Source: Thermodesulfobacteriota bacterium (GTDB taxonomy: Bacteria > Desulfobacterota_D > UBA1144 > Nemesobacterales > JAJCZQ01). Taken from it: a DNA stretch of 46,105 nt. The stretch's first letter is position 1; the number at the start of each line of letters is the position of its first letter. Below the pieces are notes generated by a model that worked only from the letters and a program-made list of their open reading frames with translations, was not told the origin of the DNA and did no database searches. The stretch lies in contig CBDBDR010000012.1 in assembly GCA_965203965.1 (NCBI GenBank), positions 1 to 46,105 of the forward strand, read 5' to 3'. This document shows, in pieces, positions 13,346 to 43,399 of the stretch. A program made the position numbers and the translations under genes.

Positions 13346-13891
13346 TTATATTTTGTGTTTGACTTTATCTTCTGGTGCAAGAGGGTTCTCTCCCTTATAA
13401 AACTGCTGTAACAGAGCAATCGCTTCGTCTTCCATAACTCCTGAGGTTATGCGAAGAGGTGGAAGAGGTAGTCTTTCCACTCTGCTATCTGTTTGTGGTG
13501 GATAGAGTTCTATGGTAGCTGCTTGAAGTACTGACCCACAGCCTCCAAATCTGCCATTGCTGCAGCCAAAGATAACTCTAGTCAGTCCAACAGATCTCAG
13601 TGCATAAGTGCACATCACACAGGGCTCAACTGTGACGTAGAGTGTGCATCTGGAACACATGTCTCTCAGATCAACTCCCTTCTTCTTGCTAAGCTCTACA
13701 AGATGGTCAATGATGATCATCTCGGCATGTCTGGTCGCGTTCCTGGTTGCATTCACCTGATTGCAGCCCCTGGCTATGATAGTGGAGCCATCTTCGTCCA
13801 CCACCACGCACCCAACTGGTACTTCTCTCTGGGTGAGTGCTTGCTCCGCCATGCTAAACGCATCTCTCATCAGTTGAGCATTAGTCGTCAT
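13346..13891 (-). CDS. ADAT2: tRNA-specific adenosine deaminase 2 (A34-to-I), intronless
   Basis: EVPVGCVVV, NATRHAE, LYVTVEPCVMC (HxE...PCxxC zinc motif), FGCSNGRFGGCGSV, FYKGENPLAP; first ATG at 13891. Confidence 0.95.
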   Translation of the reverse strand: MTTNAQLMRDAFSMAEQALTQREVPVGCVVVDEDGSTIIARGCNQVNATRNATRHAEMIIIDHLVELSKKKGVDLRDMCSRCTLYVTVEPCVMCTYALRSVGLTRVIFGCSNGRFGGCGSVLQAATIELYPPQTDSRVERLPLPPLRITSGVMEDEAIALLQQFYKGENPLAPEDKVKHKI

Positions 13892-14130
13892 CTTTGAAGT
13901 GGGAAGCCACGCACGTGTCGTCACCCTTTATTCAGCGTGGTCCGGCCGGCCATTATTCAACGCTATGGCGCAGGCTTGCGCTGCGGGATAAGCCTCAAAC
14001 GAAAAGTTAGTGGATGGCTGCGCATTTGCTGTGATTGGCTGGAGAACGCATCTAGCTAGCAGAGCAGCAAAGCACACGTGGTGTTGTGTCTGTTATCATC
14101 CTGTTGTCCTGGTGCATCTACAAGCAAGGT
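13892..14130. promoter_or_regulatory. Putative bidirectional promoter / non-coding first exon between ADAT2 and the collagen locus
   Basis: CpG-rich stretch between divergent genes, GATTGG (reverse CCAAT) near 14033, CACGTG boxes, possible donor CAAG|GTATCG near 14129. Confidence 0.45.
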
Positions 14131-14342
14131 ATCGTTTGTACTGCCACCATGTGTTACTCGTATAAGATAAACTAGCCTTGTGTTTTGTTTTGACTGCAGT
14201 ATAATAGTGTATTATGCATCTAAGTATACTGAATGTGCAGCCACGTTATTTTTCCATGCAGTGACAGAGTCTGTAACTACTGGTAGTTGTTAACTGGTGC
14301 AGCATTGCAACTAGCTAGCCAGCCACAGAGCTCCAGCTAGCG

Positions 14343-17300
14343 ATGGCTAGTAGCAGCAGCAGCAAGGCACTTGTTGCATCTCTTCTTCTTCTCTCTCATC
14401 AACTCCATATTGCATCCACTTCAGCTATAGGTGAGCTCATTGTCTGCATTATAAGCTAGAGAGTCTGATTTTGAGTGATGTGGGACAGCCTCAAAGGATC
14501 AGTAAATTAGAAAAACTATTGTGGTTTACTATGTGTGGATTGGATAGTGTCACAAAAACATCTGTTCCCACTTGTGTTGGTGATCCTAGCTTTGCCAATT
14601 GAAGCCATTAGGTAGCTATTACCACCTTCATTAAGGCACTGTGGTCTGTGTTTTCTCACAGTGGATATCCTCAGCACAACTGGAGTATCAACCAGTCTCA
14701 CATCTGAGAATGGAACTTTTACGCTAACTATGGACTTCACAGGCGCAACAAGTTCTTCAGCGTGGAGCAACATCAGCAGTCAATTTTCATCTGAGTTTGG
14801 GTTCTTTGCTCACACAGTTCTTGGCGCAGGCCCACGCAATATATTCTCGACTAATTCACCAGATCCGTTTGTAGTATCAATCACAAGTGACAATAGACTG
14901 CAAGTAGACTTGCCTGGAGTTGCTCCTCAACTCTTTGATATTCCCACCGACAATATGCTTCATCGATTGGGTGTTTTTACCAGAAACGGTCAAGATTTGA
15001 TAGTATCTGTAGACTGCAGAGAAGGACAGACACAGCGGTTACCATCCACAATAGGCACTCTAGCAGTAGGAGATACAATAAATGCTGTTGTAGCAGGTCC
15101 CTCAATGGTGAGAGCATCACTGGTAATGTAGAATCTGTCACTTTTTCTCGATTTGCTTCAGGTTAATGAAATGTTACTGAGCGGCGATGCAGCAGTTGCA
15201 CTCCGTAGCTGTGCAGTAAGTACTACACTAGTTATAACTACAGTAACTCAATGTTGTTACGTATATATAGATAATTCAAGGTCCAAAAGGAGAAAGGGTA
15301 CATTGTCTCTTATTTCACCACAAAATTATTACGGACACATTTTATGATAGGGTATGAAAGGTGAATTAGGTGATGCAGGAGCGAGAGGACGTCCTGGAAA
15401 AGATGTAGGCATTCCCTCTCATGTAGTGATGTCTATTTTATTTTTCTTTGTTTTGCAGGGTGTAGATGGGCCTCCTGGCACAGCAGGTGATCCTGGTCTA
15501 CCAGGAATTAATGGTACAGTTGGACGACAAGGACCACCAGTGAGCAACTTGAGTGTGAAGATGAAGAATTGAGACATTAAATTTTTTTGTATAGGGAGAA
15601 AAAGGAATGATTGGTAATTCCGGTCCAGCTGGACCTAATGGAACAATTGGACCAGAGGTGGGAATAGTGTTTTACTAAACTTTCTTACATTACTGGATTG
15701 TCAATAGGGTCCCATTGGGCCCCCAGGGCCTCCTGGTGAGGATGGTACTCAAGGAAGAAAGGGTCCCCCAGGACCACCTGTGAGTGAACCAGTCGGTATG
15801 TTGCTGTCACTCTATAGCATGTGTAGGGTACTAACGGTCTGCCTGGTGCCCCTGGTACCAATGGTACTGATGGACAGAGAGGACCTCCTGGGGCACAGGT
15901 AAGTGACATTAGGTTACACACACTGACTACATTATGAGTCACGGCAGGGTGAACAAGGTGAACAAGGGATGAAGGGTGACTCTGGACGAGCAGGAAAGCC
16001 TGTATGTCACAACGCATGACAACATGGTACGCAGTGTTTGATTGTATTGTATTCTAATGCAGGGAACTGATGGAGAGAAGGGTGAAGTGGGTCCTCCAGG
16101 ACTTCAAGGTGAACAGGGAGAACAAGGCATACAGGTAAGTGATCATTGCTTATCTTGCTCTACTGAATACCATGGTAGGGCGAAGCTGGCCCACCTGGAC
16201 AAAATGGAATGAATGGAACAGATGGTGAGAAAGGAGAGCCTGGTGCTCGAGGACCGCAAGGAGTAAATGGAACAAAAGGAGAGATGGGTGACACTGGACC
16301 TCAGGGTAGTCAAGGAAGAAAAGGACTCCCTGGGCCTCCAGGAATGCAAGGACCAGATGGAATGAAGGGTGATCAAGGACCCAATGGGACAGCTGTGAGT
16401 GCTGTGGTCTGATTGCAGGTGCCCTAGTATGAAGGTCTTCTTTCCAACCAAGGGTCCCATGGGAGAGAAGGGAGAACCAGGTGCCACTGGGCCACAAGGT
16501 ATAGATGGTCCACAAGGAATGGAGGTATGTGTGATCATTTCTCTGGTCTGAGCTGTATTTTATTTGTTTCATTTTCAGGGTGAGAAAGGCCAAAGAGGAG
16601 AGATGGGTCTTTCTGGAGTACCAGGTGTCAATGGATCTGCTGGTGAACCGGTAAGAATACTAGCGGTCTGTGTCAATGGTGATAGCGTTATTGTGTTATT
16701 CCAGGGAATGAGAGGAGAGAAAGGCGAAAAAGGAATGCTAGGAGCAGCTGGTCCTCCTGGATTAAATGTAGTTTGTCTCTCTCTCTGAGTGCATGAATGC
16801 TGTATGATGTTGCTGCAGGGTACAGAGGGTCCCCAAGGACCAGCTGGAAATGATGGTCAAGATGGTGCTGATGGAATGAATGGTGCAATAGTAAGTGTTG
16901 TGAGAGCATTTCTTGCTGTGTTGTTACCGTACATGCACCAGGGTCCACCAGGAGACCGCGGAGAGAAAGGAGACGAAGGTCCTCAAGGCCGTAAAGGATT
17001 CCCTGTCAGTAATTCTGCATAGCTTGCACATTGCTTATTGTTGTTGCTATAGGGTGATAGAGGTATTGATGGTGAGAAAGGCGCTACTGGTGAAAATGGT
17101 AGTCCAGGAGTGCCTGGTCGCAATGTGAGTATCTGGGCGTGTATTGTCTCTGTGCTATCAGCTTGGTGTGTATACAGTAGTAACATTCCATTCATAGCAC
17201 GCATAGCGAGACTGTCTTGAGGTTAAAACCACAATTATTGTAGGGCACTGATGGTAGTGATGGTTTACAGGGAGAGAGAGGAGAACCAGGAAAAGATGGT

Positions 17301-20300
17301 TTGAATGGTACAGCAGGTCCACCGGTTAGTTGGCTCATTTTAGTATCATCAGTCATTCACTTTATGGTTGGTAGGGTTTGCCAGGTGATATGGGGCTCGT
17401 TGGTCCGGTGGGTATGAATGGAACGACGGGTCCTCGAGGACGCACTGGAAAACCAGTGAGTTAGATCGTAGTGCCCATCACATGCAGTGTCTTGCTGGTT
17501 GCTGCAGGGACCATCTGGTATGAAAGGAGAACCTGGGTTGAATGGAACAGCTGGAGAGAGAGGAGAACCAGGAAAAGAGGTGCTTAGTTTGTGAAGTGTG
17601 TCTAGTGTTTGTGGTTTACTGATGTTTTACAGGGTTTAAGAGGACCTCCCGGTCTGAATGGAACACAAGGAATGATGGGAGAGAAGGGAATGAATGTATG
17701 TGTGAACCATGTTGCTATGGCTACAAAGAGTTTATTTGGTTGCCTAGGGAAGTGTTGGTCCATCTGGAGAAAAAGGAGATCAAGGCATGCCAGGCTCACC
17801 AGGAAGCGATGTAATGCATTTGTGATGTTGTTTACAGTGATAGCATAGGTCTTTGATGTTGTGTATAGGGTGATCCAGGTGTGCAAGGTAGAGCTGGCAA
17901 GCCTGGTCCTATGGGGCCTTCTGGGCAGAAGGTAGGATGGTACATCATTCTACCACAATATCCTACTGTTTGTATTAGGGTGAGAATGGTACTGCAGGAG
18001 AAATGGGTACTCCAGGAGCCACAGGCCAACCAGGACCAATGGTGCATTGTGCTATTGTCCCCAATAATGTATGATTATCATGTTACTAACTGCAGGGCAT
18101 GCAAGGTGATCCTGGTGTCCCTGGAAGAAACGGTACACCAGGTCAAATGGGACCGCCTGGAAAGATGGTAATTTTTGACTGCAAATATAACTTCTAGCTT
18201 ATTTACTGTGTTGTGCAGGGTGATGCTGGACCTCCTGGACGTAATGGTTCTGATGGAGCTCCTGGACCACGTGGAGAACCAGGGAAAATGGTTTGCAACA
18301 AGGATATTACTGAGATCATCATGAGAGTGCTGTATGTAGGGAAACCCTGGATTGAATGGAACCGCTGGACCACCTGGAATGGCTGGCCCTCCCGGAACAA
18401 ATGTGAGTAGTAATAGCACTTTGATCAGATCTATCATAACTTCCATTTGTAGGGCAGAAAAGGTCCTCCTGGGCCCATTGGTTTAAAGGGAAATCAAGGA
18501 GATGCAGGTCCTCCTGGTTTTAATGTGAGAACTAATGTAAAAACTGACTCTTATCCACTGCACTGTTTCACAGGGAACTGAAGGCCCTGTAGGACCAGCT
18601 GGACCAAAGGTACTTATCGAAATCACTTCTCTAATACACATCGATTATATTATTTTTGCCCAGGGTTGTCTAGGATTTAATGGTAGTCAAGGTGAACCTG
18701 GTCAGCCAGGACAAAGAGGTCCTCCCGGTGACTTGGTTAGTCTGATTAGTTGTCTCTAATTATGACTTGATTATGTGTTAATTACAGGGTCCAGTAGGAC
18801 CGGCAGGGCCTCCAGGCACTCCGGGAGGACAAGGAAATTCTTCTGGAAATGGAGAAAAGGTGGTTGAGCATAGTGTGTCGACATGTTTTACATATTTTGT
18901 GCTGCAGGGAATGAAAGGAGATGTAGGTAGCAGAGGTCTGCCTGGTAAATCAGGACAACCAGGTATTCCTGGTCAGAGAGGACTGCCAGGAAAACCAGGA
19001 GAGTCTGGTGAAGCGGGAATACCAGGATCAACTGGTTTGTGGTATGAGTGATGTCACTATTGTAGTGCTGTGAACTGCAGGAATACCTGGTAAGATGGGA
19101 GCTGCAGGAGAACCAGGACAGAGAGGGCTGCCTGGAAAAATGGGTCCATCAGGAAGCAGAGGAGTACCAGGAAAGAATGGTGCTCCTGGTTCCGATGGAG
19201 AGAAAGGAGACACTGGAATGGATGTATGCAGTAGTGTGTATCATGGGATATACTGTCACTAATATGCTGCTAATACAGGGTGAACCTGGTAGCAGAGGGC
19301 TTCCTGGGAAACGAGGCATACCTGGAATGGCTGGTTTACCTGGAAAAACAGGTATGGATGGGTTGCCTGGAGCCAGGGGTCTACCGGGAAAGAACGGTGA
19401 ACCTGGAACTAATGGAAGGGCTGGTCTACCTGGAAAAACTGGTGAAACGGGTCAATCTGGTGTTCCTGGCAAAACTGGTTTACCTGGCATACCTGGAAGA
19501 GCAGGACTACCTGGCAAAGGTGTGTGATGAGTACTACAGCAACTCGTTGTACTACAGGCAATTTCTTTCTCAACAGATGGGCCGCCAGGAGGGGATGGTC
19601 CACCAGGTCCTCCAGGCCCTAATGGTACCAAAGGTGATGCTGGCCCTATAGGACCGGAGGGTCCACCAGGAAGAGCTGGACTTCCTGGTAAAATGGGAAC
19701 AAATGGTTCACCAGGTGCAGACGGACAACCAGGCAGCCCAGGATTAAGAGGATCCACAGGAAAACCAGGACTACCAGTGAGCAAGAATTACAAATTAGTT
19801 TTAGTGATCTATATGACTTGATTGTTACAGGGTGATGCTGGTATGAAAGGAAATGATGGTGCACCTGGACCACCTGGAGATGTCATAGGGGTACCTGGTC
19901 TGCCTGGCCCACTTGGTGATACTGGACGCAAGGGTCCACCAGGATTCCAGGGTCAACCAGGAATGCCGGGAGATCCAGGTGTTCCTGGCGTGAGAGGGCC
20001 TAAGGGAGACACTGGAAATGAGGGTAGGTTTACAGGCTGCAGCAAGCGTTTAATAATACTGTTGGTGTGTTTAGGACCAAAGGGTTCCATTGGAAACAAT
20101 GGTACTGCAGGCCCAATGGGATTAAAGGGAAGCAAAGGAGATCCCGGAGGAGAGAAGGGACAGAAAGGAGAGCTTGGCTTACCAGGTTTGTAGGAGAGCT
20201 AATTTTACTCCAGTAATAATTGTGATGATATTCTTAGGACCGAGAGGAGAAATGGGAAATCCTGGACTGAACGGCACTGAAGGAATGCAAGGGGAAAGTG

Positions 20301-20634
20301 GTGAAAAGGGAGATCGAGGTCCAATGGGCAGAAAGGGACAAATGGGTGAAGAAGGTGAAAAAGGAAGTAGCGGTGAAAAGGGAGACACAGGTGCTGATGG
20401 CATGAAGGGAAATGTGGGAGATACTGGAGGCAATGCAGTGGTAGGCAATCCATGTAGAATCGTAGTGAAGTGTGCGCTTGATACGTCATTACTCTTCAGG
20501 TTGTGGACACGTTCGATGAATTACCAAATAATGCAAGTGACGGGCAGTTGGGCTTTGTTGTATCCGATCAGCAGCTTCATGTGTACTTTGGTCCCAGAGG
20601 ATGGCTTAGTGTCAGCCAGAACTGCACATCTGAT
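14343..20634 (+). CDS. Collagen module A: signal peptide, TSPN/LamG-like domain, interrupted Gly-X-Y domain, collagen XV/XVIII-like trimerisation motif
   Basis: Exon 14343-14430 ([18 protein letters not shown]..) then exon from 14662 ([32 protein letters not shown]-like), then dozens of small Gly-X-Y exons with ~50-bp introns (15271-20440), then exon 20500-20634 [38 protein letters not shown]. The 3' end is ambiguous: read-through stop at 20641-20643, terminal exon 20677-20796, or splicing to 21240. Confidence 0.9.
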
Positions 20635-21239
20635 GTAAGCTAGTGGTTTGTTTCGTGTATCATTTCATCTCTTCAGTGTCAGTCCAAGCAGTTTAGTCAA
20701 ATTCGAGATAGTTTCGCATCCATTTTTGATTATAATTTATTATTATTATTGAAAGTAAAATTAAACATTAACTGTATTTCTTGTTTGCTGTGTTGAAGAA
20801 ATTAATATTAATTTTTATCACTGATTAACCGCATTATGAATCCACATCAAAGCAATTTCAATAGACGCCAGACGTGATAACAAGCTTGCGAGGGGCGTTA
20901 CTGTAGCCAGCACCAGTCTCGCCTACCAGGCGTATGCCGAATTGCTCGAGAGAAAGTGTTTCACAACTTTTGTATCACCGGTTGATAAAGAAAACATTGA
21001 CTTGCAGCGGTTCCGATGCCTTTGCTGCATTCAGCTGGCAGCCTTCAACGACCAGCTTGTTTTTTTCAATGCGTCATCGCTGCGTCGTTCTCTGTCGATC
21101 GATGCTTGCCGATCTATGGCTAGCCTCCGTTTTTTTTTTAAACAAAGCTATTTGGAAACGCACAGATAACTAAACTGTGAGAACTAACACTGTTCATGTT
21201 CAACATTTAATTTTCAATTTTTACTTTTGTTCTTTGTAG

Positions 21240-24200
21240 GACAATGACACTTACCTCGAGGGACTCTGCGGCTGTCCAGTAAGTTCAGAGAAGAATCGTT
21301 GTTGTTAGTTTTTCACACAATAATGTATTCTCGCGCTTGCATATGCTACTAAAGTAGATACACGTGCTACAGTTATTTTAGTAGGTATCATATTACGTAC
21401 TGTAACGTCACAAAATATGCGCAGTGGTCATGTCAATGACTGATTCCCAAGTACATATGGTTAAGATATATAGCTGTGCTGTGGTTTTCTCGCTGTTACA
21501 ATAATTTTTATAAATTTTAGGGTTTATTAGCTGTAGTTTGCATTTGCATTTGCAAAAGTGTAATGTTTTAGATCACATCGACAACTGCGACCATGACCAG
21601 CTCAACGCTCATCACACCAGTGGTATCATCAACAATTCTACCGCCTACCAATATGTCATCAACACCATTTCAATCATTCACAATGGTGTTCTCATCAACT
21701 CCTATGATCCCATCGTCCACAATGGTGTTCTCATCAACTCCTATGATCCCATCGTCCACAATGGTGTTCTCATCAACTCCTATGATCCCATCGTCCACAA
21801 TGGTGTTCTCATCAACTCCTATAATCCCATCGTCCACAATGGTGTTCTCGTCAACCCCTGTGGTCCCATCGTCCACAATGGTATCTTCAACTCCTGTGAT
21901 CCCATCGTCCACAATGGTATCTTCAACTCCTATGATCCCATCGTCCACAATGGTGTTCTCATCAACTCTTATGATCCCATCGTCCACAATGGTGTTCTCA
22001 TCAACTCCTATAATCCCATCGTCCACAATGGTGTTCTCGTCAACTCCTGTGATCCCATCGTCCACAATGGTATCTTCAACTCCTATGATCCCATCGTCCA
22101 CAATGGTGTTCTCATCAACTCCTATGATCCCATCGTCCACAATGGTGTTCTCATCAACTCCTATGATCCCATCGTCCACAATGGTGTTCTCATCAACTCC
22201 TATGATCCCATCGTCCACAATGGTATCATCAACTCCTATGATCCCATCGTCCACAATGGTATCATCAACTCCTATGATCCCATCATCAACAATGGTATCA
22301 TCAACTCCTATGATCCCATCGTCCACAATGGTATCATCAACTCCTATGATCCCATCGTCCACAATGGTATCATCAACTCCTATGATCCCATCGTCCACAA
22401 TGATATCATCAACTCCTATGATCCCATCGTCCACAATGGTATCATCAACTCCTATAATCCCATCGTCCACAATGGTGTCGTCAACTAGTACTGTAGTCCT
22501 ATCACCATCACTCGTGTTCACCCCAACACCTATAGTAGGTTGCTTATGTCATTGTGATCTTAGTTGTGACCGTGAGCTTGGAGGGGTTGGAGGGTATCAT
22601 GATAGAGCTAGCCAAGGGGTAGTTGCTTTTTAGACTGATAACTGATAACTTAGTCGAATGGAACTGAATTGGTAACTGATTTTAAATTACAAAAAGAAGA
22701 CTATTTATAGTAAATAGAAGTTTCTAGAAGTAGAATGATCAAGAAGTGTCAAGTAAGGTCTATAAAATATAAGAACAGGTTTAAAAATGCGGAAAATCCC
22801 AGGGGCTACAGGTATTATTTGGGGGACTAAGGTTGATGGTGAGTTTGGTATACATCCCTAGAGTTATAAAATAGATGATAGCATTGTTCTGAGGTAGCTT
22901 TTGGGTTTTATCAGTAAAAGAATGACTGATGTGTGCTGGTTGCAATCTATCCAGTGCAGTACAGCGGTTCTTATACTAAAGCACAAACCATAGACCATAA
23001 TATTTCAGTATTATGATTGTCAGATGTGGGGTCAATTATAATAGAAAGTCATAACAGTAGTAATTATTTCTACTTGATTACTACGTTTACTGAGATACTA
23101 CTCATCTAGGGAATGTTTGCATTCATATTGGTCTAAATATTATGCTAAACAACCATTCTATTGCTATACTACTCATTTTGATGACTAAAAATTAATAATA
23201 CAAAATGGAAGTTTGCCTGTTGTTCGCATAGTTTGTGTCTATTACTATATAAGATGACTCTCTACAGTTTATTGCAAAAACTGTTGTACCAACTGTTCTT
23301 TAGCTTACCTTTTTACAATTTTTCATCCTCAGCTAACTGGACCAGTCACCTCTCTGGTCTATTACCTGCCTATTGGTCATCCTTTGACTTACTAGCATTA
23401 TAGTCCTTTCATATCGGCATGCGTTAATTAAATCTCATCTTTTAAAACATAGAACATACAGGTGGTGTCTGCATGAGATCAATAATAATTAGTCACTATA
23501 TTGAGAAGGAATGAGCATAGATACTATCTAGTTTAGGAGAAAGCTAGGTACAGAATGCTCCTGCTAGGTACCATTCCTTGTTCAAATCAAAAAACTTATT
23601 CTCAAAAAACTTATTCTGATTTCCTTAATGCAGGTCTATAGTCTTTACTTTGCTTTAGTTGCAAAAACACTTGATATTGTCTCATCCAATGTATGGCTCT
23701 GTATACATCTATACCAGTATGTAGCAGCAGGTTTCTTATACCATCTTCTCTGGGTTTTAGTTCCCCACAAGGAACATTCATGTCCTTATCTTGCTATGAC
23801 ATGTCAAGGGCATCTGCCTTCAGAGCAGATCACTACAGTATTAGTATAGCTTTCTGCGGTAATCTTACTACATGTATAAGTAGTTTCATTGCTTGATAAT
23901 CAGAATCATTGTTGTGAATATGATTAGAGGAGCATGCATGAATTTAATTCTGATTCTAGATGTGTAGGGCTTCTAAAAATTAACCTTAGTCCCTCCAGAT
24001 GATACCGCCAGCCAACATTTTGCCCCCAAGCTCACGGTCTACAATTACTGATATTTCAAAAGTACGGAAAACAGTGGCTGCAATGTTTTTGAGATTATTT
24101 TTTTTCTGACATAGCCACGTCCTGAGCTAATACCAGGACTACCAGGAGAAAAGGTAATTCATAGTAATGATAGTTGTACTATTAGTATTATCATGTTGCA

Positions 24201-27200
24201 ACAAAGGGCTGGAAAGGTGAAGTAGGTCTTCCTGGTCGGACTGGTTTTCCAGGAATACAGGTTTGTTATCAATGATAATTATTTTTCTCATGCTCATTTG
24301 TTTTTGATGATCAAAGAACACTGTTGCCGGTCCTAAAGGTGAACAGGGTCTACCAGGAAGAGATGGTACTCCTGGTGACCAGGGAGAGCCTGGAAAACAG
24401 GTAACATGAGTTGCTTCTAGTCTACACTATAATTTTGAACCATTCTTCTCAGGGTACGAAAGGTATGCCTGGATCAGGTGTTGGACCACCAGGACCTAGA
24501 GGGTTGCCAGGACCACCAGTGAGTATGAGACAGCTTGCTGATGATGGTGTACTAGTGTCTTGCTATAGGGCCCAGCTGGTAGTGAGCCAGGAGTACCTGG
24601 TCGTGTTGGGCCAGTAGGTGAGAGAGGTCCACCAGGACAACAAGTGAGTTGAACATGGCAGCATATTGTTGACATGCTTGATTTGTTCGTTGATGATTGT
24701 CAGGGAAATCCAGGGACACCAGGATTACCTGGTATTGATGGCTTCCCCGGAGAGATAGGAAAAATTGGTACAGAGGTATTAGTCTCAAAATTTACTATAG
24801 ATCATTTTAGTCATGTTTTGCAACAGGGAATTCCTGGCATAAAGGGTGAAAAGGGCTCTGATGGGCGCATGGGCAAACCAGTGAGATTGAAACTGACTCT
24901 TATTTGAAAAGTATTACTACTTGCGTCTAGGGATTGACTGGAATGAGAGGAGCTCCTGGTATGAATGGAATCAAAGGAGCTAATGGAACCGAAGGAAACA
25001 TGGTACAGCAGACCAGCCATTGTATCAATGTACTATTGTTGTGGTGTACAGGGCATACCTGGACCAAGTGGGGCCCCTGGTAGCAATGGTGTTAGAGGTG
25101 AAACAGGAGAGCACGGAAGAAAGGGAATCCCAGGACATAATGGAATGAAAGGAGAGACTGGAGAGAGAGGAGCTGATGGACCAAATGGAAGGAGAGGTCT
25201 TCCTGGAGTTAAAGGTATCAAGGGTAATGATGGACTTGATGGCATGCAAGGATTTGCTGGACCACAGGTAAGCTTGTCTTATGTTAGTCCAAACTTTGAA
25301 CATTTATGAGAAACTGCTTAACAGGGACCTAAAGGAGAAGATGGTCAAAATGGAAGAAAAGGAAAACCAGGCAACGATGGAGCAAAGGGAGTGAATGTGA
25401 GTCTGCTGTAAGATGAGATTATGAATTTTTTAAAACACAAAAAGGGTGAAAAAGGCAACGAAGGAGTCTCTGGTCAGCCAGGTAGAGCAGGTATACCTGG
25501 AATAAATGGAGCTAAGGTAGTGTGTACTGCATACAGTATCATATGGTACTGTGCTGTTAGGGAGCCGATGGTATGGCGGGAGACAAGGGAACGATGGGAG
25601 AGAGAGGTCCAGCTGGAGTTATGGTACAGCGTCAACTAGTGATCATGACTACTGATTATGCTGTGCTTCACAGGGAGGGCGTGGTCAACCAGGACTACCT
25701 GGACGAGATGGAAGGAACGGCACTGACGGAGTCTCAGGAAGAAAGGTGCTATACTGTGATGGTGCACAGTTTGAATTTGTGTCTAAATGTGCAGGGTCCA
25801 CCTGGTTTCAAAGGTCAGGTAGGGGACAGAGGCAGGAGAGGAACAAATGGGAAACCTGTAAGTTGAAGATATTGCTCATAACTAGTGGTTAACAATCTTA
25901 CAGGGAATCCCAGGAATTGATGGTATGATAGGTGATGATGGAGAAGCGGGAGATGATGGACCACCAGGAAGCAATGTAAGCTGGACCGTGTGTCATCCAT
26001 GACAGCTGCATGCACTGTCACTGGCTCGTAGGGAATTCCTGGTACTGATGGAACACCGGGCGTAACAGGAGAACCTGGAAATCAAGGGATGCCCGGTGAA
26101 CGCGGACCTAAGGTGATCAATTAGCGTCTTTTAAACAATAAATTATTTGTACTCATAGGGAGATACAGGTGATCGTGGACCAGCAGGAAACGCTGGTGCT
26201 GATGGTCCAGTAGGAAGGAGAGGGGAGCCTGGACAATCAGTTAGTACACTATGACAGTCTCTAGTGATGCTGTGGTGGTGTGTGTGATGTAGGGTCAAAA
26301 AGGAATTCCAGGAGATCCCGGTATTGATGGCATTGATGGACGAACTGGATTTCCAGGAGGAAGGGTATGTTAGTAGATGCAGCTATACCAGTTGAGTGTG
26401 TTGTGCTTGCTGCAGGGTCCACAAGGATTCCCAGGTGCTGATGGTGCCAAAGGAATGAGAGGAGACACGGGAGATATTGTAATTAGACGTCTAAACTGTT
26501 ACGTAGTATAGCGAATATTGCTTGTGCATGCATATAGGGTGGAACTGGAGAAAAAGGAATGATGGGAGATCGTGGTATGAATGGATCACAAGGCATGCCT
26601 GTAAGTGTTGTCTATTGATGATGTAATTATTCACTGTTCTACTAATACTCGCTAAGGGTGCAAACGGAAGAGATGGAAGAATGGGAAAGCCAGGAATACC
26701 TGGATTGAATGGTGAAAAGGTAAGCTGAAGGACGATTTTAAAGTCCTACTGCATTTTTTTGCTCAATGAAGGGCTCTCCTGGGCCCAGGGGTCAGATGGG
26801 TTTTGAAGGAGAAGAAGGGAAGATTGGAATCAAGGTACGTACAGCTAGTTGCATCGATTGATAGTGAGGTCTGTTCTGCTGACTAGGGTGTGATGGGCAT
26901 GCCAGGACCACCTGGTGTAGATGGCTATCCTGGTAGAACAGGTGTACCAGGAATGAAGGCAAGTCACTACTACAGTAGAGGCATGTGATCAGCACATGCA
27001 CACTGCAGGGAATGGCTGGTCCAGCAGGAGCACCTGGTCGACAAGGATTGAAAGGAAGAACAGGATTCCCTGGCAGCAGGAGCACCTGGTCGACAAGGAT
27101 TGAAAGGAAGAACAGGATTCCCTGGCGGTGATGTTAGCTTAATCATAGATATATTATCCATGTTTATTACACACTTCTCACACACAGGGACCTCCTGGTC

Positions 27201-29646
27201 AGCCGGGCATTATGGGACCACCTGGTGACAGAGGTAGTAGAGGTGCTCAGGTATAATGTAATAAAGCAAGCAGCCAAAGCCATTGTAATTACATCATTGT
27301 ACAGGGCGGTATGGGTATACCTGGCATCCGTGGACCTCCTGGAGACGTGGGCCCACCGGGAGAAGTTGGAAATAGAGTACGTATGAACAGCGGCTTCTGA
27401 AATAAGTGTTTGATTTTCATTTGACAATTAGGGTCCGATTGGGCCTCTGGGAGTTAAGGGTGAAATGGTATGGTAATTAACCGCACAGGTTTATTAGTCT
27501 TATAATTTCTTAACAGGGTGAAGTAGGTCTGCAGGGCCCTCTTGGTCCACAAGGAGATATAGGAGAACAAGGAAAGAATGTATGATGGCAGTGATATTAT
27601 CACAAAGTGTTGAAATTGGTTTCTTGCTGTAGGGCAACAGAGGGCCTCCAGGTGGTTTTGGGCTGCCAGGTCCTCCAGGCCCGCCCGGGATAAAGGGAAG
27701 CAAGGTCTGTGAGTGGTTCGTGTGTAGCGTGTTACTGTGTGTACTCTGGTAAAGGGAGAAAATGGTGATCCTGGTCAAAGAGGAAGAAGCGGATTCCCAG
27801 GACCTGATGGAGAACCAGGAACTAAGGGACGAACTGGTGTAAACGGAGAGAAGGGTGAAAGAGGGCTACAAGGAGGACCGGGTAAGCAGTTGAGGATTTT
27901 AGAATCTCCGCTATGAATCGAGGTTCACTGTATAGGTGAACAAGGCAAGGATGGAATTCCTGGTGTCAATGGAAGCATCGGAGATCTAGGCCCAGATGGA
28001 CCTCCTGGAGTTAAGGGCAGGAGCGGACGACCAGGATCGGATGGTATCAAAGGAGCTAAAGGAGTAGTTGGTGACAAGGTATGCGTTTAACTACTCTTCC
28101 ATGTAATCTTTGTTCCTCAACTCAGGGTAGCCAAGGATTGTCTGGTGAAGAAGGCAAGCTAGGGGAACCAGGCACTCCAGGAGAGCCAGGAATGAATGGA
28201 ACTGATGGAGTACCAGGTGTAAAGGGTCGTGTTGGTTTCCCTGGTTTACCAGGACCAAAGGGAAGGCGTGGTAGAATGGGCAAGAATGGAACTAAAGGAG
28301 CCATAGGAGAACCTGGAAAGATGGGTCTACGAGGACCCAAGGGGACTCGAGGAAAACCAGGAAGAGGTGAACTCTGAGACAACTAGCAAACTGACATTCA
28401 TGCGTTTCTTTATAGATGGAATAAGTATTGACGGAGATCCTGGACAACCAGGTGTGGCTGGTATCAAAGGAGAAGCAGGAGATGTGGGTCCTGTTGGTCC
28501 GATGGGCATACCTGGAGACGAGGGCAAACCAGGAATTAATGGTACAGACGGAGTTCCAGGCCGGAACGGAACTCCAGCATTGAAGGGAAGAACAGGAAAA
28601 CCAGGATCACCAGTCAGTTGTGGTAGTGTGCATGAATTATTGACTAACTCATGATAAAGGGAATACCCGGAGTGAAGGGAGAACTAGGAGATCTAGGACG
28701 ACCAGGAATGACCATTGGTGAGAAGGAGCTAGAACAACATTCTGTGTCTCTATAATATTTTTACACTTCACAGCTGTTGTGGGACCACTGGGAGAGAAAG
28801 GACTGCCTGGTCCAATGGGAATACGTGGTCCTTTGGGAGTGCCTGGTAGTGAGAAGGGAAGGCGTGGACAGCATGGTGAATCAGGAGAGAAAGGGACACA
28901 TGGTCAACCAGGTTAGCATGCTCCATGACACCACACACGTGCCCTATGCTCAACAATATAGGTCAACCTGGTGAAAGAGGATTTGATGGTCCAGACGGCC
29001 CCCCTGGCCCTGTTGGGGATCCTGGAGGCATGATACCAGGAGATCCCGGTGAACCTGGAGAGTTCGGTATGGTGGAAAGCTCTGTAGACTTAAATGATTA
29101 ACTATCTGTTGCTGCAGGTCGAAAGGGTCCACCTGGAAGAAATGGGATCAATGGAGAGAAGGGAGAACCTGGTGAAGAACCAGTAAACGGTGATCGGGGT
29201 AGGGTTGGGTGGCCGGGAATGAAAGGAGCCAAGGGAATCGTCGGAGACAAAGGAGATAGAGGTAACCTTGGAAACAAAGGAATGCAAGGAGATAATGGTC
29301 GCACAAGCAATGTACCGGTAAGTGACACCAAGAACTCTGATCCATCTGCCTCTGATCTATCTGTTTGTAGTGCGTGTGCTCTCAAGGAGATCTTGAGCAA
29401 CCCCAGAACAATACTACAGGTGTCATCAGACTGGTTGCCAGAGAGAAGTCTCTCTATGTCTACACCAGGCAGCTGGGGTGGGTTAAGGTACTCAACAACG
29501 GAAGGACAAGCCAGCGAAAAAGACGATCCACAAAACAACAACAATTTGACAATGGCGGAATAAACAGAAACACATCCACGAAAGAGTCTAACAGAGAAAT
29601 AGTCGCACGAGATTCTGTCAAAAGATCTAATCAGCAGCTGCTATAA
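21240..29646 (+). CDS. Collagen module B: CGCP micro-exon, mucin-like exon, Gly-X-Y domain, second trimerisation motif (continuation of module A or a tandem paralogue)
   Basis: Phase-0 exons 21240-21278 ([13 protein letters not shown]), 21572-22534 (S/T/P/M repeat), 24115-24153 ([13 protein letters not shown]), many Gly-X-Y exons to 29317, final exon 29371-29646 [35 protein letters not shown]. No convincing start codon or signal peptide of its own. One exon is frameshifted (27022-27125). The Gly-X-Y exons are better supported than the two upstream exons. Confidence 0.8.
21680..22487 (+). repeat. 39/36-bp minisatellite, probably coding ([12 protein letters not shown][F])n, ~21 units
   Basis: Unit TCATCAACTCCTATGATCCCATCGTCCACAATGGT(GTTC/A); unit lengths differ by exactly one codon; flanked by a phase-0 acceptor (21571) and donor (22535). 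Confidence 0.9.
22561..24047. mobile_element. Degraded ~1.5-kb TIR DNA-transposon derivative in the collagen intron
   Basis: Left end TAGTTGTGACCGTGAGCTTGG pairs with right end CCAAGCTCACGGTCTACAATTA; subterminal GGGACTAAGGTT (~22823) pairs with AACCTTAGTCCC (~23982); AT-rich interior with no long ORF. Confidence 0.65.
27022..27125 (+). repeat. Perfect 52-bp tandem duplication inside a collagen exon
   Basis: CAGCAGGAGCACCTGGTCGACAAGGATTGAAAGGAAGAACAGGATTCCCTGG at 27022-27073 and 27074-27125. Confidence 0.95.
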
Positions 29647-29791
29647 CGCGCCAACAAACTCACTCTACAGTGCGATGGCTGCAAAAAAACTATAAAATTA
29701 TAAAAATTCAGTTTTTTTTTAGATCTGTGAGATTCAATGTTAGTAGTGATACTTAGCTATGAGCTGTAATAAAATTATTGACTGTTTAGAA

Positions 29792-40527
<10,736 letters not shown>

Positions 40528-40878: not shown

Positions 40879-43044
40879 CTAGTTCATTTTTGTTAAATTC
40901 ATGTAGACATTTTCGATAACATGTTCAGGCTTCCTAAAAAAACGACTTGGCTGCAATGTACCAAAGCCACGATCATTGCTGTGAGTGCCACCGTTAGTGC
41001 TTATCTCACGTAGAAGCTCCTTCATGACCCAGTGGTTGTGAAACCTTTCTGCTAGAGCAGGGTCACACTTCTTTTTGAGGCATTGCAAGATCAAGCAGAT
41101 AAGACCGGCTACAGCTGGGGCAGCATAAGAAGTACCATTTGCACATGTTGCTTGATCAGCATACTTCAAGTTATTAGCTGCTCCAAGTATATTTTCTCCA
41201 GGAGCCAAAAAATCTAAGTGTTGTCCAACAGGCGAAAAAGGTGAAGACTTTCCATGCATATTGTGAGAGCCAATGCACAGTACATTACCGAGACGTGCTG
41301 GGTAGCAAATAGGGGTTTGAAGTTGGTGACCTGTATTACAAGCAGCACATACTATGATGACTCCAGCACAAATTAAGTCAGAAATAGCTTTGGCAATTGG
41401 TTCTGAATAGTAAGGACTACCAAATGACATTGATACGACATCAACCCTGATCTCTGATGAAGGATCACTATTTCTGTTTTTGATGTCAACCAAGGCGTCA
41501 ATAACTGCTAGATCTGAGTATTCGTTGTCACCGTCCCGTTTTACTTTGTACACCAACAGCTTAGTATCAGGAGCAACACCTGAAGAGACTAGAACTTCTT
41601 TACTACCTGATACACTAGGATTTTCAGAAGCTGTAAAACTATTCCCACAAACTATACTGGCGCACATTGTACCATGGCCATCGGTGTCTGTGTAATCAGG
41701 AGCTTTGTTAAGGACTTTGCCAGCACTACGAAAAGCTATGTGCGAATCATCTAAGCCAGTATCCAGAATAGCTACTACAGTTCCCTCCCCTTTACATGAT
41801 TCATGAATAGACTTGAGGTTCCAATATTCATACGCAGTGAATTTATAGTTAACCTCTTGTAGAACCAAAGGGAATCCATCGTTAGTGAATGACTTTATAT
41901 CACTATTTTTTTCCAGTGTGTCCAATGATCTCTTCTTCATTCCCAATTTTTTCTTTTTGGGTGATCTTTTCTTCTTTTGGCTAGTTTCCTTGCTTTTTGA
42001 GGCCCCTTTCTTGCTTGGTCCAGATAATTTTAATTTAAAGATCTTGACTAATGGAGGCTTTTCCATAGTGCTCGAGCATTTTTCTGACGTCTCTTCTTGG
42101 AGAGTCTTCCAGCGTGCTTTTCCTAGTTCATTGCGTAAATTGCCAAACGTATTCAAAGGGTCAGTGAAGCAAATCTTGGGTGCATTAAAGAGAATAATAG
42201 CACCAACAGCATTTGGTACACAAGCAGCTATAGAATCTATACTCGACGCTCTGATTGGGACTTCAATACAATCTATACTGATACCCTGAGAGAGGCTGTG
42301 AGACAGAATATCAGCCAAGTTACTGATATCGACTACTGCAAAAAGAACTTTGTCAACCTTCTTCACACCTTGTTTGACCAACTCTTCTGTTGAACAAGTC
42401 AGTATCTGCTTAAGTAAATAGCTATTGTTTCCAAGCTCATTTGAATAGTTATCAGGCAGACGTAGATCTATCAGGCTCAGTTCTGGTTTCAAGGTTAGAG
42501 ATTTCATTTTTTCTCGAAGTATTGGTACAAGAGTACTAATAAGCTCATCTGGTTTATTACGAGAAGATTCCGCTACTTTGGCAGGAAGATACTCGGATAG
42601 CAGAAACTTTGGTTTAGCTTTACGTCCACGTTGCTTAGCTTGGATGGGAGCTTCTACATAGCTTTCAGAAACAGCACTACAACTAGCAGCATCATTATCA
42701 TCCTCAGATGATTCAGATGATTCTGATGGCTCTACACTAAGTTCTACTCTGGATTGCTTGGAGGCTGATGTGAAGCTATTTTCTGGATCCTTAGGACGCT
42801 TTTGTAGCAAAGAATCATTTTTACTCACTAGTGCATCTCTAGGGCTGGTTTGGTCAGTTGGTTGAGTAGCTAAAAGATCGGTACTAGCAGATTCCCTTTC
42901 ATCTTGTTCTTGTGAAGCATACCTCTCAGGAACAGAAAGTTCTTCAGCATCTTTATCTTGGAAATCTTCACATTCGTTAGATCCTGGGATATTAACCACT
43001 TGTGTTGGTTCATGTTGTTCATCAGTCACAGTATCATCAGCCAT
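40879..43044 (-). CDS. Subtilisin-family (S8) serine peptidase with long acidic N-terminal extension, CDS intronless, 721 aa
   Basis: Catalytic motifs in S8 order: VAILDTG (Asp), DGHGTMCAS (His), VVSMSFG, CAACN (oxyanion Asn), DFLAPG, NGTSYAAPAVAG (Ser). No signal peptide. Confidence 0.93.
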   Translation of the reverse strand: MADDTVTDEQHEPTQVVNIPGSNECEDFQDKDAEELSVPERYASQEQDERESASTDLLATQPTDQTSPRDALVSKNDSLLQKRPKDPENSFTSASKQSRVELSVEPSESSESSEDDNDAASCSAVSESYVEAPIQAKQRGRKAKPKFLLSEYLPAKVAESSRNKPDELISTLVPILREKMKSLTLKPELSLIDLRLPDNYSNELGNNSYLLKQILTCSTEELVKQGVKKVDKVLFAVVDISNLADILSHSLSQGISIDCIEVPIRASSIDSIAACVPNAVGAIILFNAPKICFTDPLNTFGNLRNELGKARWKTLQEETSEKCSSTMEKPPLVKIFKLKLSGPSKKGASKSKETSQKKKRSPKKKKLGMKKRSLDTLEKNSDIKSFTNDGFPLVLQEVNYKFTAYEYWNLKSIHESCKGEGTVVAILDTGLDDSHIAFRSAGKVLNKAPDYTDTDGHGTMCASIVCGNSFTASENPSVSGSKEVLVSSGVAPDTKLLVYKVKRDGDNEYSDLAVIDALVDIKNRNSDPSSEIRVDVVSMSFGSPYYSEPIAKAISDLICAGVIIVCAACNTGHQLQTPICYPARLGNVLCIGSHNMHGKSSPFSPVGQHLDFLAPGENILGAANNLKYADQATCANGTSYAAPAVAGLICLILQCLKKKCDPALAERFHNHWVMKELLREISTNGGTHSNDRGFGTLQPSRFFRKPEHVIENVYMNLTKMN

Positions 43045-43399
43045 TATTTCTAAAGAGATTTGTAAAGATTGAAGTCATAATACACAACACAGCTACTAGT
43101 TTGTAATGTCTGTTTACAAAAACCTGAGTGGTTGCTAGCGATCATGTACATTTTACCATGCTTGAATTTTGTGTTATTTAAGGGACTACATGTCGAACTA
43201 GAGAAACGGCTCAATTTGCAATTGCGTGCTGTTTTTTCTGGCTCACCATCTAGTACTCTACAGTGACTTTACAAACTGCTGTGCGGTCCTAGGGTGAAGC
43301 TAGAGGGCTGAGGGACCCAAATGTTTTACGACATAGTTTTTTCATTTTAAAGTAGCAACCAGGGTGGGTGGGTGGGAGGGCAAGCAGAGCGGGGCACCT

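Follow-up and report, generated by a model that had tools for sequence, protein, structure and literature searches.

A collagen gene, probably from a sponge, with two long rods each followed by a module of predicted collagen XV/XVIII-type fold

Introduction

The multiplexins (PDB 3n3f, 3hsh, 3hon, and 9bnb; Pfam PF20010 and PF06482) combine a collagen rod with a C-terminal trimerisation module. According to PMC7852327, multiplexin triple-helix domains are split by non-collagenous linkers of 7–45 aa into 3–9 COL domains, and a collagen XV domain of about 50 residues starts in-register helix assembly. In two reviews, collagens XV/XVIII are listed starting with the cnidarians, and the demosponge genome available at that time is said to lack the basement-membrane toolkit, laminin-related genes excepted (PMC3308698, PMC5395295). 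According to PMC12549020 and PMC2852846, the TSPN domain is also present in B-clade fibrillar collagens; TSPN is therefore not diagnostic for multiplexins.

The fold of the trimerisation domain is also known from phages. PMC8822698 reports it, at 1.34 Å, for the N-terminal domain of a lyase from a Klebsiella phage, and it occurs in phage tailspikes, so that the fold alone is no proof of descent from a multiplexin.

Host and transcript data

Genome bin G000 consisted of one gene-dense 1.5-Mb contig (44 tRNAs and a tmRNA) and 16 small contigs, mostly with low coding density. The window, i.e., the whole 46,105-nt stretch analyzed, was contig C12 of this bin. It was intron-rich animal DNA, with a median intron of 53 nt, and therefore was most likely host DNA binned with the prokaryote genome. 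The host was probably a sponge, judging from the compact introns and from gene families of demosponge-like character. The bin was rated as a 99.5% complete prokaryote; its small contigs (C1–C16) amounted to about 0.48 Mb and were mostly animal-like, C9 being phage-like and C13 bacterial-looking.

Three RNA-like runs and one DNA run were compared with positions 13900–21660 of the window. The RNA-like sets X1, X2, and X3 were assembled contigs from one study; their RNA nature was guessed, and they behaved as spliced RNA. The 15 joints listed, out of 42, were all GT..AG, and none was present in the DNA run.

Block 1 and the short form

The N-terminal part, the first rod, and the short-form end of the collagen gene were as follows.

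13993..14128, + strand: exon 1, 5′ UTR (X2 and X3 contigs start here; GT..AG joint)
14262..14430, + strand: exon 2, with the ATG at 14343 and a putative signal peptide (hydrophobic 10-mer mean 2.5)
14662..15215, + strand: N-terminal LamG/TSPN-like domain of about 170 aa, in exons 14662–15107 and 15162–15215 (ESM Atlas features)
15271..20440, + strand: collagen block 1, with 1,093 aa in 36 exons, amounting to about 362 triplets (translation and RNA-like contigs)
20500..20643, + strand: module 1, of predicted collagen XV/XVIII-type trimerisation fold (exon 20500–20634 directly after an AG acceptor)
20644..20817, + strand: short-form 3′ UTR, with ATTAAA at 20760 (3′ limits 20817 in X1 record 1 and 20798 in X2 record 3)

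The 41-exon gene model agreed with X1 record 1 at eight of eight anchor positions. This record continued past the GT at 20635 as far as 20817; the short chain therefore ends at the TAG at 20641–20643, 47 residues past the helix. In block 2, 91 residues follow the helix. The donor after 20634 was used by the long form and read through in the short form. The short form was a chain of 1,339 aa, and its expression was shown by the RNA-like contigs. Block 1 contained four imperfections of 1–2 residues, and its longest run was 227 triplets.

The peptide that the preliminary description had noted at 20500 was a real plus-strand translation, located after an AG acceptor and spliced in the RNA-like contigs. 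It had been placed after the last Gly-X-Y exon, which held for block 1 (exon 20238–20440) but not for the locus, as a second block lies downstream. The absence of endostatin, also noted there, was confirmed by the end of the short transcript and by the search of G000 with Endostatin (PF06482), which gave zero matches at E ≤ 10 (controls were prokaryotic, none above the cut-off). Open frames of at least 45 aa past the short-form stop contained nothing endostatin-like. The C-terminal fibrillar propeptide COLFI (PF01410) gave zero matches on the contig, its control also being silent, and the C4 domain (PF01413) gave no match on C12.

The N-terminal domain had an ESM Atlas Laminin_G_3 score of 0.96, with 114 of 256 features in common. 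No Pfam, PDB, or homologue match was obtained for it (homologue search of 2,673 candidates), and the single-sequence fold model of the LamG-like exon had a pLDDT of 40. Multiplexin or TSPN reference sequences were absent from the returns of the homologue searches. The TSPN-type N-terminus assumed at the outset was thus retained as LamG-like by language-model features, but not by any database match.

Block 2 and the probable long form

Downstream of module 1, the following features were located.

21240..21278, + strand: linker exon of the long form, 39 nt, phase 0-0, with a C-G-C motif (joint deduced from contig depths)
21572..22534, + strand: candidate optional mucin-like exon, 321 aa, phase 0-0 (AG/GT-bounded open frame)
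24115..29317, + strand: collagen block 2, 1,083 aa, paralogue of block 1 (translation and exon sizes)
29371..29646, + strand: module 2, with a C-x-C start, then a putative furin-type site (R-K-R-R) and a polar tail of about 50 aa to the stop (translation and homologues)

Block 2 contained eight imperfections of 1–4 residues, and its longest run was 261 triplets. Comparison of the two blocks showed that 27 of 35 exon sizes were equal at the same rank and that the non-glycine identity was 0.236, against 0.176–0.219 in 10 triplet shuffles. N-x-S/T sequons numbered 26 in block 1 and 8 in block 2; the rods may therefore differ in glycosylation and packing. Module 2 shared 34% identity with module 1 over 35 aa (E 1e-6). 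The R-K-R-R after it is presumably a furin-type site. The candidate mucin-like exon was composed of 30% Ser, 18% Thr, and 15% Pro, with a 39-nt repeat present 21 times.

In X3, record 4 (9,735 nt) had one base of depth past 20634, exactly 39 nt at 21240–21278, and 5.4 kb more. The depth in the bin 21152–21410 corresponded to 65.7 × 39.0 in X3 and 14.3 × 39 in X2, and three X2 contigs branched at 20631 with depths that summed accordingly (23.6 + 22.5 + 14.3 = 60.4). The spliced block-2 junction 24643/24704 was reproduced by one X1 loose end. The block-2 loose end added no extra depth in X3 and was therefore part of the same record 4; in X1 it did add depth. The joined long-form frame was open over 2,531 aa, or over 2,852 aa when the candidate mucin exon was included.

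The contig depths thus point to two transcript forms, one encoding 1,339 aa and the other about 2,530 aa, with both rods linked through exon 21240–21278 in the latter. The long-form joint was deduced from depths and is absent from the 15 of 42 joints listed, and a contig spanning two genes is no proof of a single transcript. The length of X3 record 4 exceeded that of the gene model, taken up to the stop codon, by about 1,900 nt, and a 3′ UTR together with overlap with a convergent TPR gene ending near 29795 could explain this excess. RNA-like cover of X1–X3 was absent at 20893–21151 and 21572–21660, which proves nothing.

Three further observations concerned the sequence of this region. The collagen poly(A) signal AATAAA at 29768 adjoined the stop of the convergent minus-strand TPR-like gene (near 29795), so the 3′ ends of the two genes probably overlap. 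The CpG o/e ratio was 1.0–1.3 at 20701–21600, resembling the known promoter region (0.84) and unlike 22501–24300 (0.1–0.4); this CpG-rich stretch, in the intron after module 1, resembles a promoter-like or mobile-element-derived island and hints at a second promoter. An exact 52-nt tandem duplication was present at 27022–27125, inside a block-2 exon whose paralogous exon is 72 nt. It shifts the frame if read straight, and a 43-nt GT..AG intron (27037–27079) made from the duplicate restores the frame with one additional triplet. The duplication, which lies outside the RNA-compared stretch, may reflect an intron gained through the tandem repeat, a mistake in the assembly, or a null allele.

Sequence relatives of the modules

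Profile search of the window gave no Pfam match for module 1 or module 2, and PF20010 matched neither; the profile match expected for a collagen XV/XVIII trimerisation motif did not materialize with this family. Neither the single sequence nor any of the motif-only profiles (A2, A3, and A4) retrieved collagen XV/XVIII in PDB sequence searches. The A4 profile also matched beta-propeller blades, at 4–6 bits per repeat.

Four close homologues of the modules were found in other assemblies, P0001 for module 1 and P0002, P0006, and P0010 for module 2. P0001 ended at the same residue as the module 1 short chain, so that the stop position was kept, and the other three kept the module, the C-x-C, and the basic site of module 2. 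Judged by sequence, the motif is not a chance occurrence, given the second copy after block 2 and these homologues.

The representative search used alignment A1, whose Gly-X-Y columns from P0001 favoured collagen-like proteins among the matches listed (the best 150 of 263, all with E ≤ 0.001), so module-only animal proteins could have escaped it. A motif-only profile applied to 151 proteins found a copy of at least 8 bits in 27 of them, with the four homologues at 55–97 bits (P0001 being inside the profile) and the 23 others at no more than 27 bits. From their partner domains (Phage_T7_tail, Peptidase_S74, Mtd_N, and Phage_tail_C), these 23 carriers were judged to be phage or prokaryote-type. 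Among the 26 proteins scanned, PF20010 was above the cut-off in one (P0045, 35.9 bits, also with Phage_T7_tail) and sub-threshold in another, and endostatin was found in none of the 55 proteins scanned among the best 150 of 263 matches.

Of 150 non-sponge-like proteins, 77 carried the module, with 139 copies in total, of which 96 were flanked by Gly-X-Y on both sides. Pfam neighbours of the phage-type module were DUF2793, Mtd_N, and Phage_T7_tail; a weak lead pointed to PF26696 (score 0.87, 45% of members). The module of about 39 aa between short Gly-X-Y runs, as in P0007, P0076, P0096, and 74 other phage/prokaryote-type proteins, was largely unannotated in the Pfam copy searched and may deserve a family description of its own.

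Alignment of the module with 17 prokaryote-type copies by hhalign gave a Prob of 98.9. An HMM built from these 17 copies only placed modules 1 and 2 on top among 43,074 six-frame segments of G000, with E values of 1.7e-11 and 1.2e-7, the next segment having 1.7. Because the query itself had retrieved the prokaryote-type rows, how close they stand to the modules is partly circular; at the level of sequence, the HMM result shows kinship to that family, not proof of a closer tie than to multiplexins. Identity to module 1 was 24–41% for the prokaryote-type copies vs 9–23% for the human domains in structural alignments. The module tree (81 rows, 42 columns) resolved nothing and contained no multiplexin row.

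Searches for related loci gave none in the genomes scan and none among 65 viral contigs, and phage tblastn gave E values of only 0.5 and 8. Two metagenome loci (L002 and L003, from 28 stretches) were chance matches.

Predicted fold of the modules

The AlphaFold (AF2) monomer of the module had a pLDDT of 89 and showed a short strand, a helix, and three strands. The underlying alignment had 23 rows, no collagen XV/XVIII row among them, and was shaped by query-selected prokaryote-type rows. VIA-align against 48,161 chains ranked the collagen XV domain 3n3f first (Z 5.5, rmsd 4.4, 46 aligned), although this Z lies under the level that the program calls specific. Phage CBA120 TSP3 (5w6f; Z 4.9, rmsd 1.7, 39 aligned) was tied with 3n3f within 1 Z, and collagen XVIII 9bnb had Z 4.3 (rmsd 4.3, 45 aligned). 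The other rows with Z of at least 3.2 were mostly phage tail or tailspike chains.

Foldseek placed collagen XV/XVIII domains at ranks 2, 3, 6, 8, 9, and 10, with no match at E ≤ 0.001 for the module model. In BFVD there were at least 500 matches at E ≤ 10, and the named rows among those listed were phage proteins (best E 3.7e-3). The likeness to the collagen XV/XVIII trimerisation domain claimed in the preliminary description was thus upheld by the predicted monomer fold, but not by the PF20010 sequence profile. The best reading of the model is that the module belongs to a predicted fold group common to the collagen XV/XVIII trimerisation domain, phage tail-fibre and tailspike proteins, and prokaryote-type collagen-like proteins.

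Comparison with known collagens and phage modules

Like the multiplexins, the gene has a collagen rod followed by a module of about 45 aa with the same predicted fold; from ESM features, an N-terminal LamG/TSPN-like domain is a further candidate for a common trait. It differs from them in its near-continuous rod of about 1,090 aa, in the tandem arrangement of the unit, and in being without the hinge, endostatin/restin, and a PF20010 match. The family membership implied by "multiplexin-related" was not supported, since the rod is without multiple interruptions, PF20010 is unmatched, and the fold also occurs in phage.

Phage tailspike and tail-fibre modules (PDB 5w6f, 7w1c, and 1yu0) and prokaryote-type collagen-like proteins had the same predicted fold and were the best non-self sequence relatives. 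In many of the prokaryote-type proteins the module lies between Gly-X-Y runs, like module 1 in the long form. In contrast to them, the gene studied here is a 41-exon spliced animal gene with rods 10–50 times longer.

The fibrillar collagens of the B/C clade (types V/XI and their sponge relatives) are alike in the LamG-like N-terminus and in a similar rod (about 338 vs about 362 triplets here), whereas the present gene is without the COLFI C-propeptide and without the minor helix. Against the 54/45-nt fibrillar exon series given in PMC2852846, exons of 72 and 63 nt dominate here; exons of the 54/45/99/108/162 class were 2 of 35 and 3 of 37 in the two blocks. Collagen IV and the spongin short-chain collagens, present in sponges and likewise non-fibrillar, end in an assembly domain, but the contig has no C4 domain match and the rod is far longer than in spongins. 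The gene is neither a multiplexin nor a fibrillar, type IV, or spongin collagen.

In the literature searched, whose scope left most subscription papers outside, no description of such a sponge collagen was found, nor one of a nucleation domain placed internally, with a rod of about 1,090 aa on either side, in combination with alternative 3′ ends. It looks like a new architecture for a collagen, built with a known and widely common fold.

Discussion

On balance, the locus probably encodes one secreted non-fibrillar, non-multiplexin collagen in which each rod is nucleated by a module of collagen XV/XVIII fold, with tandem duplication of the unit and two forms. The gene may have arisen by tandem duplication of a long Gly-X-Y rod plus C-terminal beta module of about 40 aa, behind one LamG/TSPN-like domain, and this would have given each rod its own nucleator. 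Three module copies would associate and fix the register, and the upstream helix would zip from C to N, as in collagen XV/XVIII. The nucleator role is suggested by the predicted fold, by the position directly C-terminal to each rod, twice, and by the short chain, in which the module is likely the nucleator because no other C-terminal domain is present.

On the scale given in PMC2852846 (338 triplets = 300 nm), polyadenylation in the intron after module 1 would yield the short chain with one rod of about 320 nm. Splicing onward would yield the long chain, of about 2,530 aa or, if the mucin exon is included, 2,850 aa, with two rods, a Cys-containing hinge, and a length of about 630 nm. Cysteine residues in the hinge and at the beginning of module 2 could lock the chains to one another, and a furin-type convertase probably removes the tail that follows module 2, cutting at R-K-R-R. 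The tissue role might be that of a non-fibrillar tether or spacer, which is a guess.

The main competing account of the architecture alone is that two neighbouring paralogous genes are present, block 2 having its own promoter and leader and the joined contigs being read-through or an assembly join. In its favour, a stop and a poly(A) signal belong to block 1 itself, and the stop position is kept in P0001. In X1, block 2 lies on a record of its own that lacks exon 21240. The CpG-rich stretch at 20701–21600 points the same way, as do candidate exons with weak leader-like features at 23628 and 23920 (6 of 34 ATG..GT candidates having a hydrophobicity of at least 1.8). This account is nevertheless rather unlikely, as the joint is canonical, in frame, and the path of the main X3 contig, no hydrophobic leader candidate was found between 20643 and 21570, and the LamG-like domain is not repeated ahead of block 2. 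A small generic beta-meander or disordered tail without a trimerisation role, resembling the collagen domains by convergence, would fit the missing profile match, the modest structural scores, and the beta-propeller blades picked up by A4. We regard it as very improbable: the module is kept directly after the rod in both paralogous units and the four homologues, the model is confident with leading matches mostly to collagen XV/XVIII domains and phage tail/tailspike chains, and the short chain has no other C-terminal domain to register 362 triplets.

Two further accounts concern the origin of the module. Horizontal transfer into this lineage, with a collagen-like gene of a phage or bacterium as the source, independent of multiplexins and replacing the C-propeptide of a TSPN-bearing long collagen, would agree with the prokaryote-only HMM placing both modules first in G000 where PF20010 finds neither, with the higher identities to prokaryote-type copies, and with the finding of only four close homologues. 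However, these identities can be accounted for by biased selection and by how large the prokaryote family is, the 42-column tree resolves nothing and is without a multiplexin row, and no donor was identified; transfer is accordingly judged unlikely. That the gene is a true multiplexin relative, an orthologue or stem member of collagen XV/XVIII from which endostatin was lost or to which it was never added, seems to us less credible still. The domain order is the multiplexin order minus endostatin, the collagen XV domain is the best structural match, and a candidate mucin exon is present here, PMC12549020 describing a mucin-like insertion in a Nematostella collagen XVIII-like protein. Against this stand the near-continuous 362-triplet rod in place of 3–9 COL domains, the lack of a PF20010 match and of endostatin in 55 proteins scanned among the best 150 of 263, and a TSPN-type N-terminus that B-clade fibrillar collagens also possess.

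If the single-collagen reading is extended, the gene may stand for an early-branching animal collagen class in which a phage-tail-fibre-type module caps and chains very long rods, switchable between single and double length (about 600 nm). The XV/XVIII domain would then be an ancient module common to, or captured from, phage/bacterial collagen-like proteins and present on animal collagens before endostatin. This extension is tentative and leans towards the doubtful.

A XV/XVIII trimerisation fold without endostatin outside the multiplexins separates the history of the domain from that of the multiplexins, and an origin of the domain in the phage/bacterial collagen-like pool becomes testable. 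The tandem rods offer a natural test of register in very long helices, and the module, as modelled, is a candidate small trimerisation tag.

Other genes and transcripts

An intron-free tRNA-deaminase-like gene (ADAT2/TadA-type) was located at 13349–13927 on the minus strand, head-to-head with the collagen promoter. On the same strand, a 731-aa open frame at 40882–43074 carried a subtilase (Peptidase_S8) domain.

Loose ends of the RNA-like contigs at 16868–16874, 17291, 18105, and 19457 were cross-matching short pieces of at least two other collagen-like transcripts, several-fold deeper than the contigs of the present gene. The longest RNA-like records were 10.9–15.6 kb, a hint of further giant collagens in the host animal.
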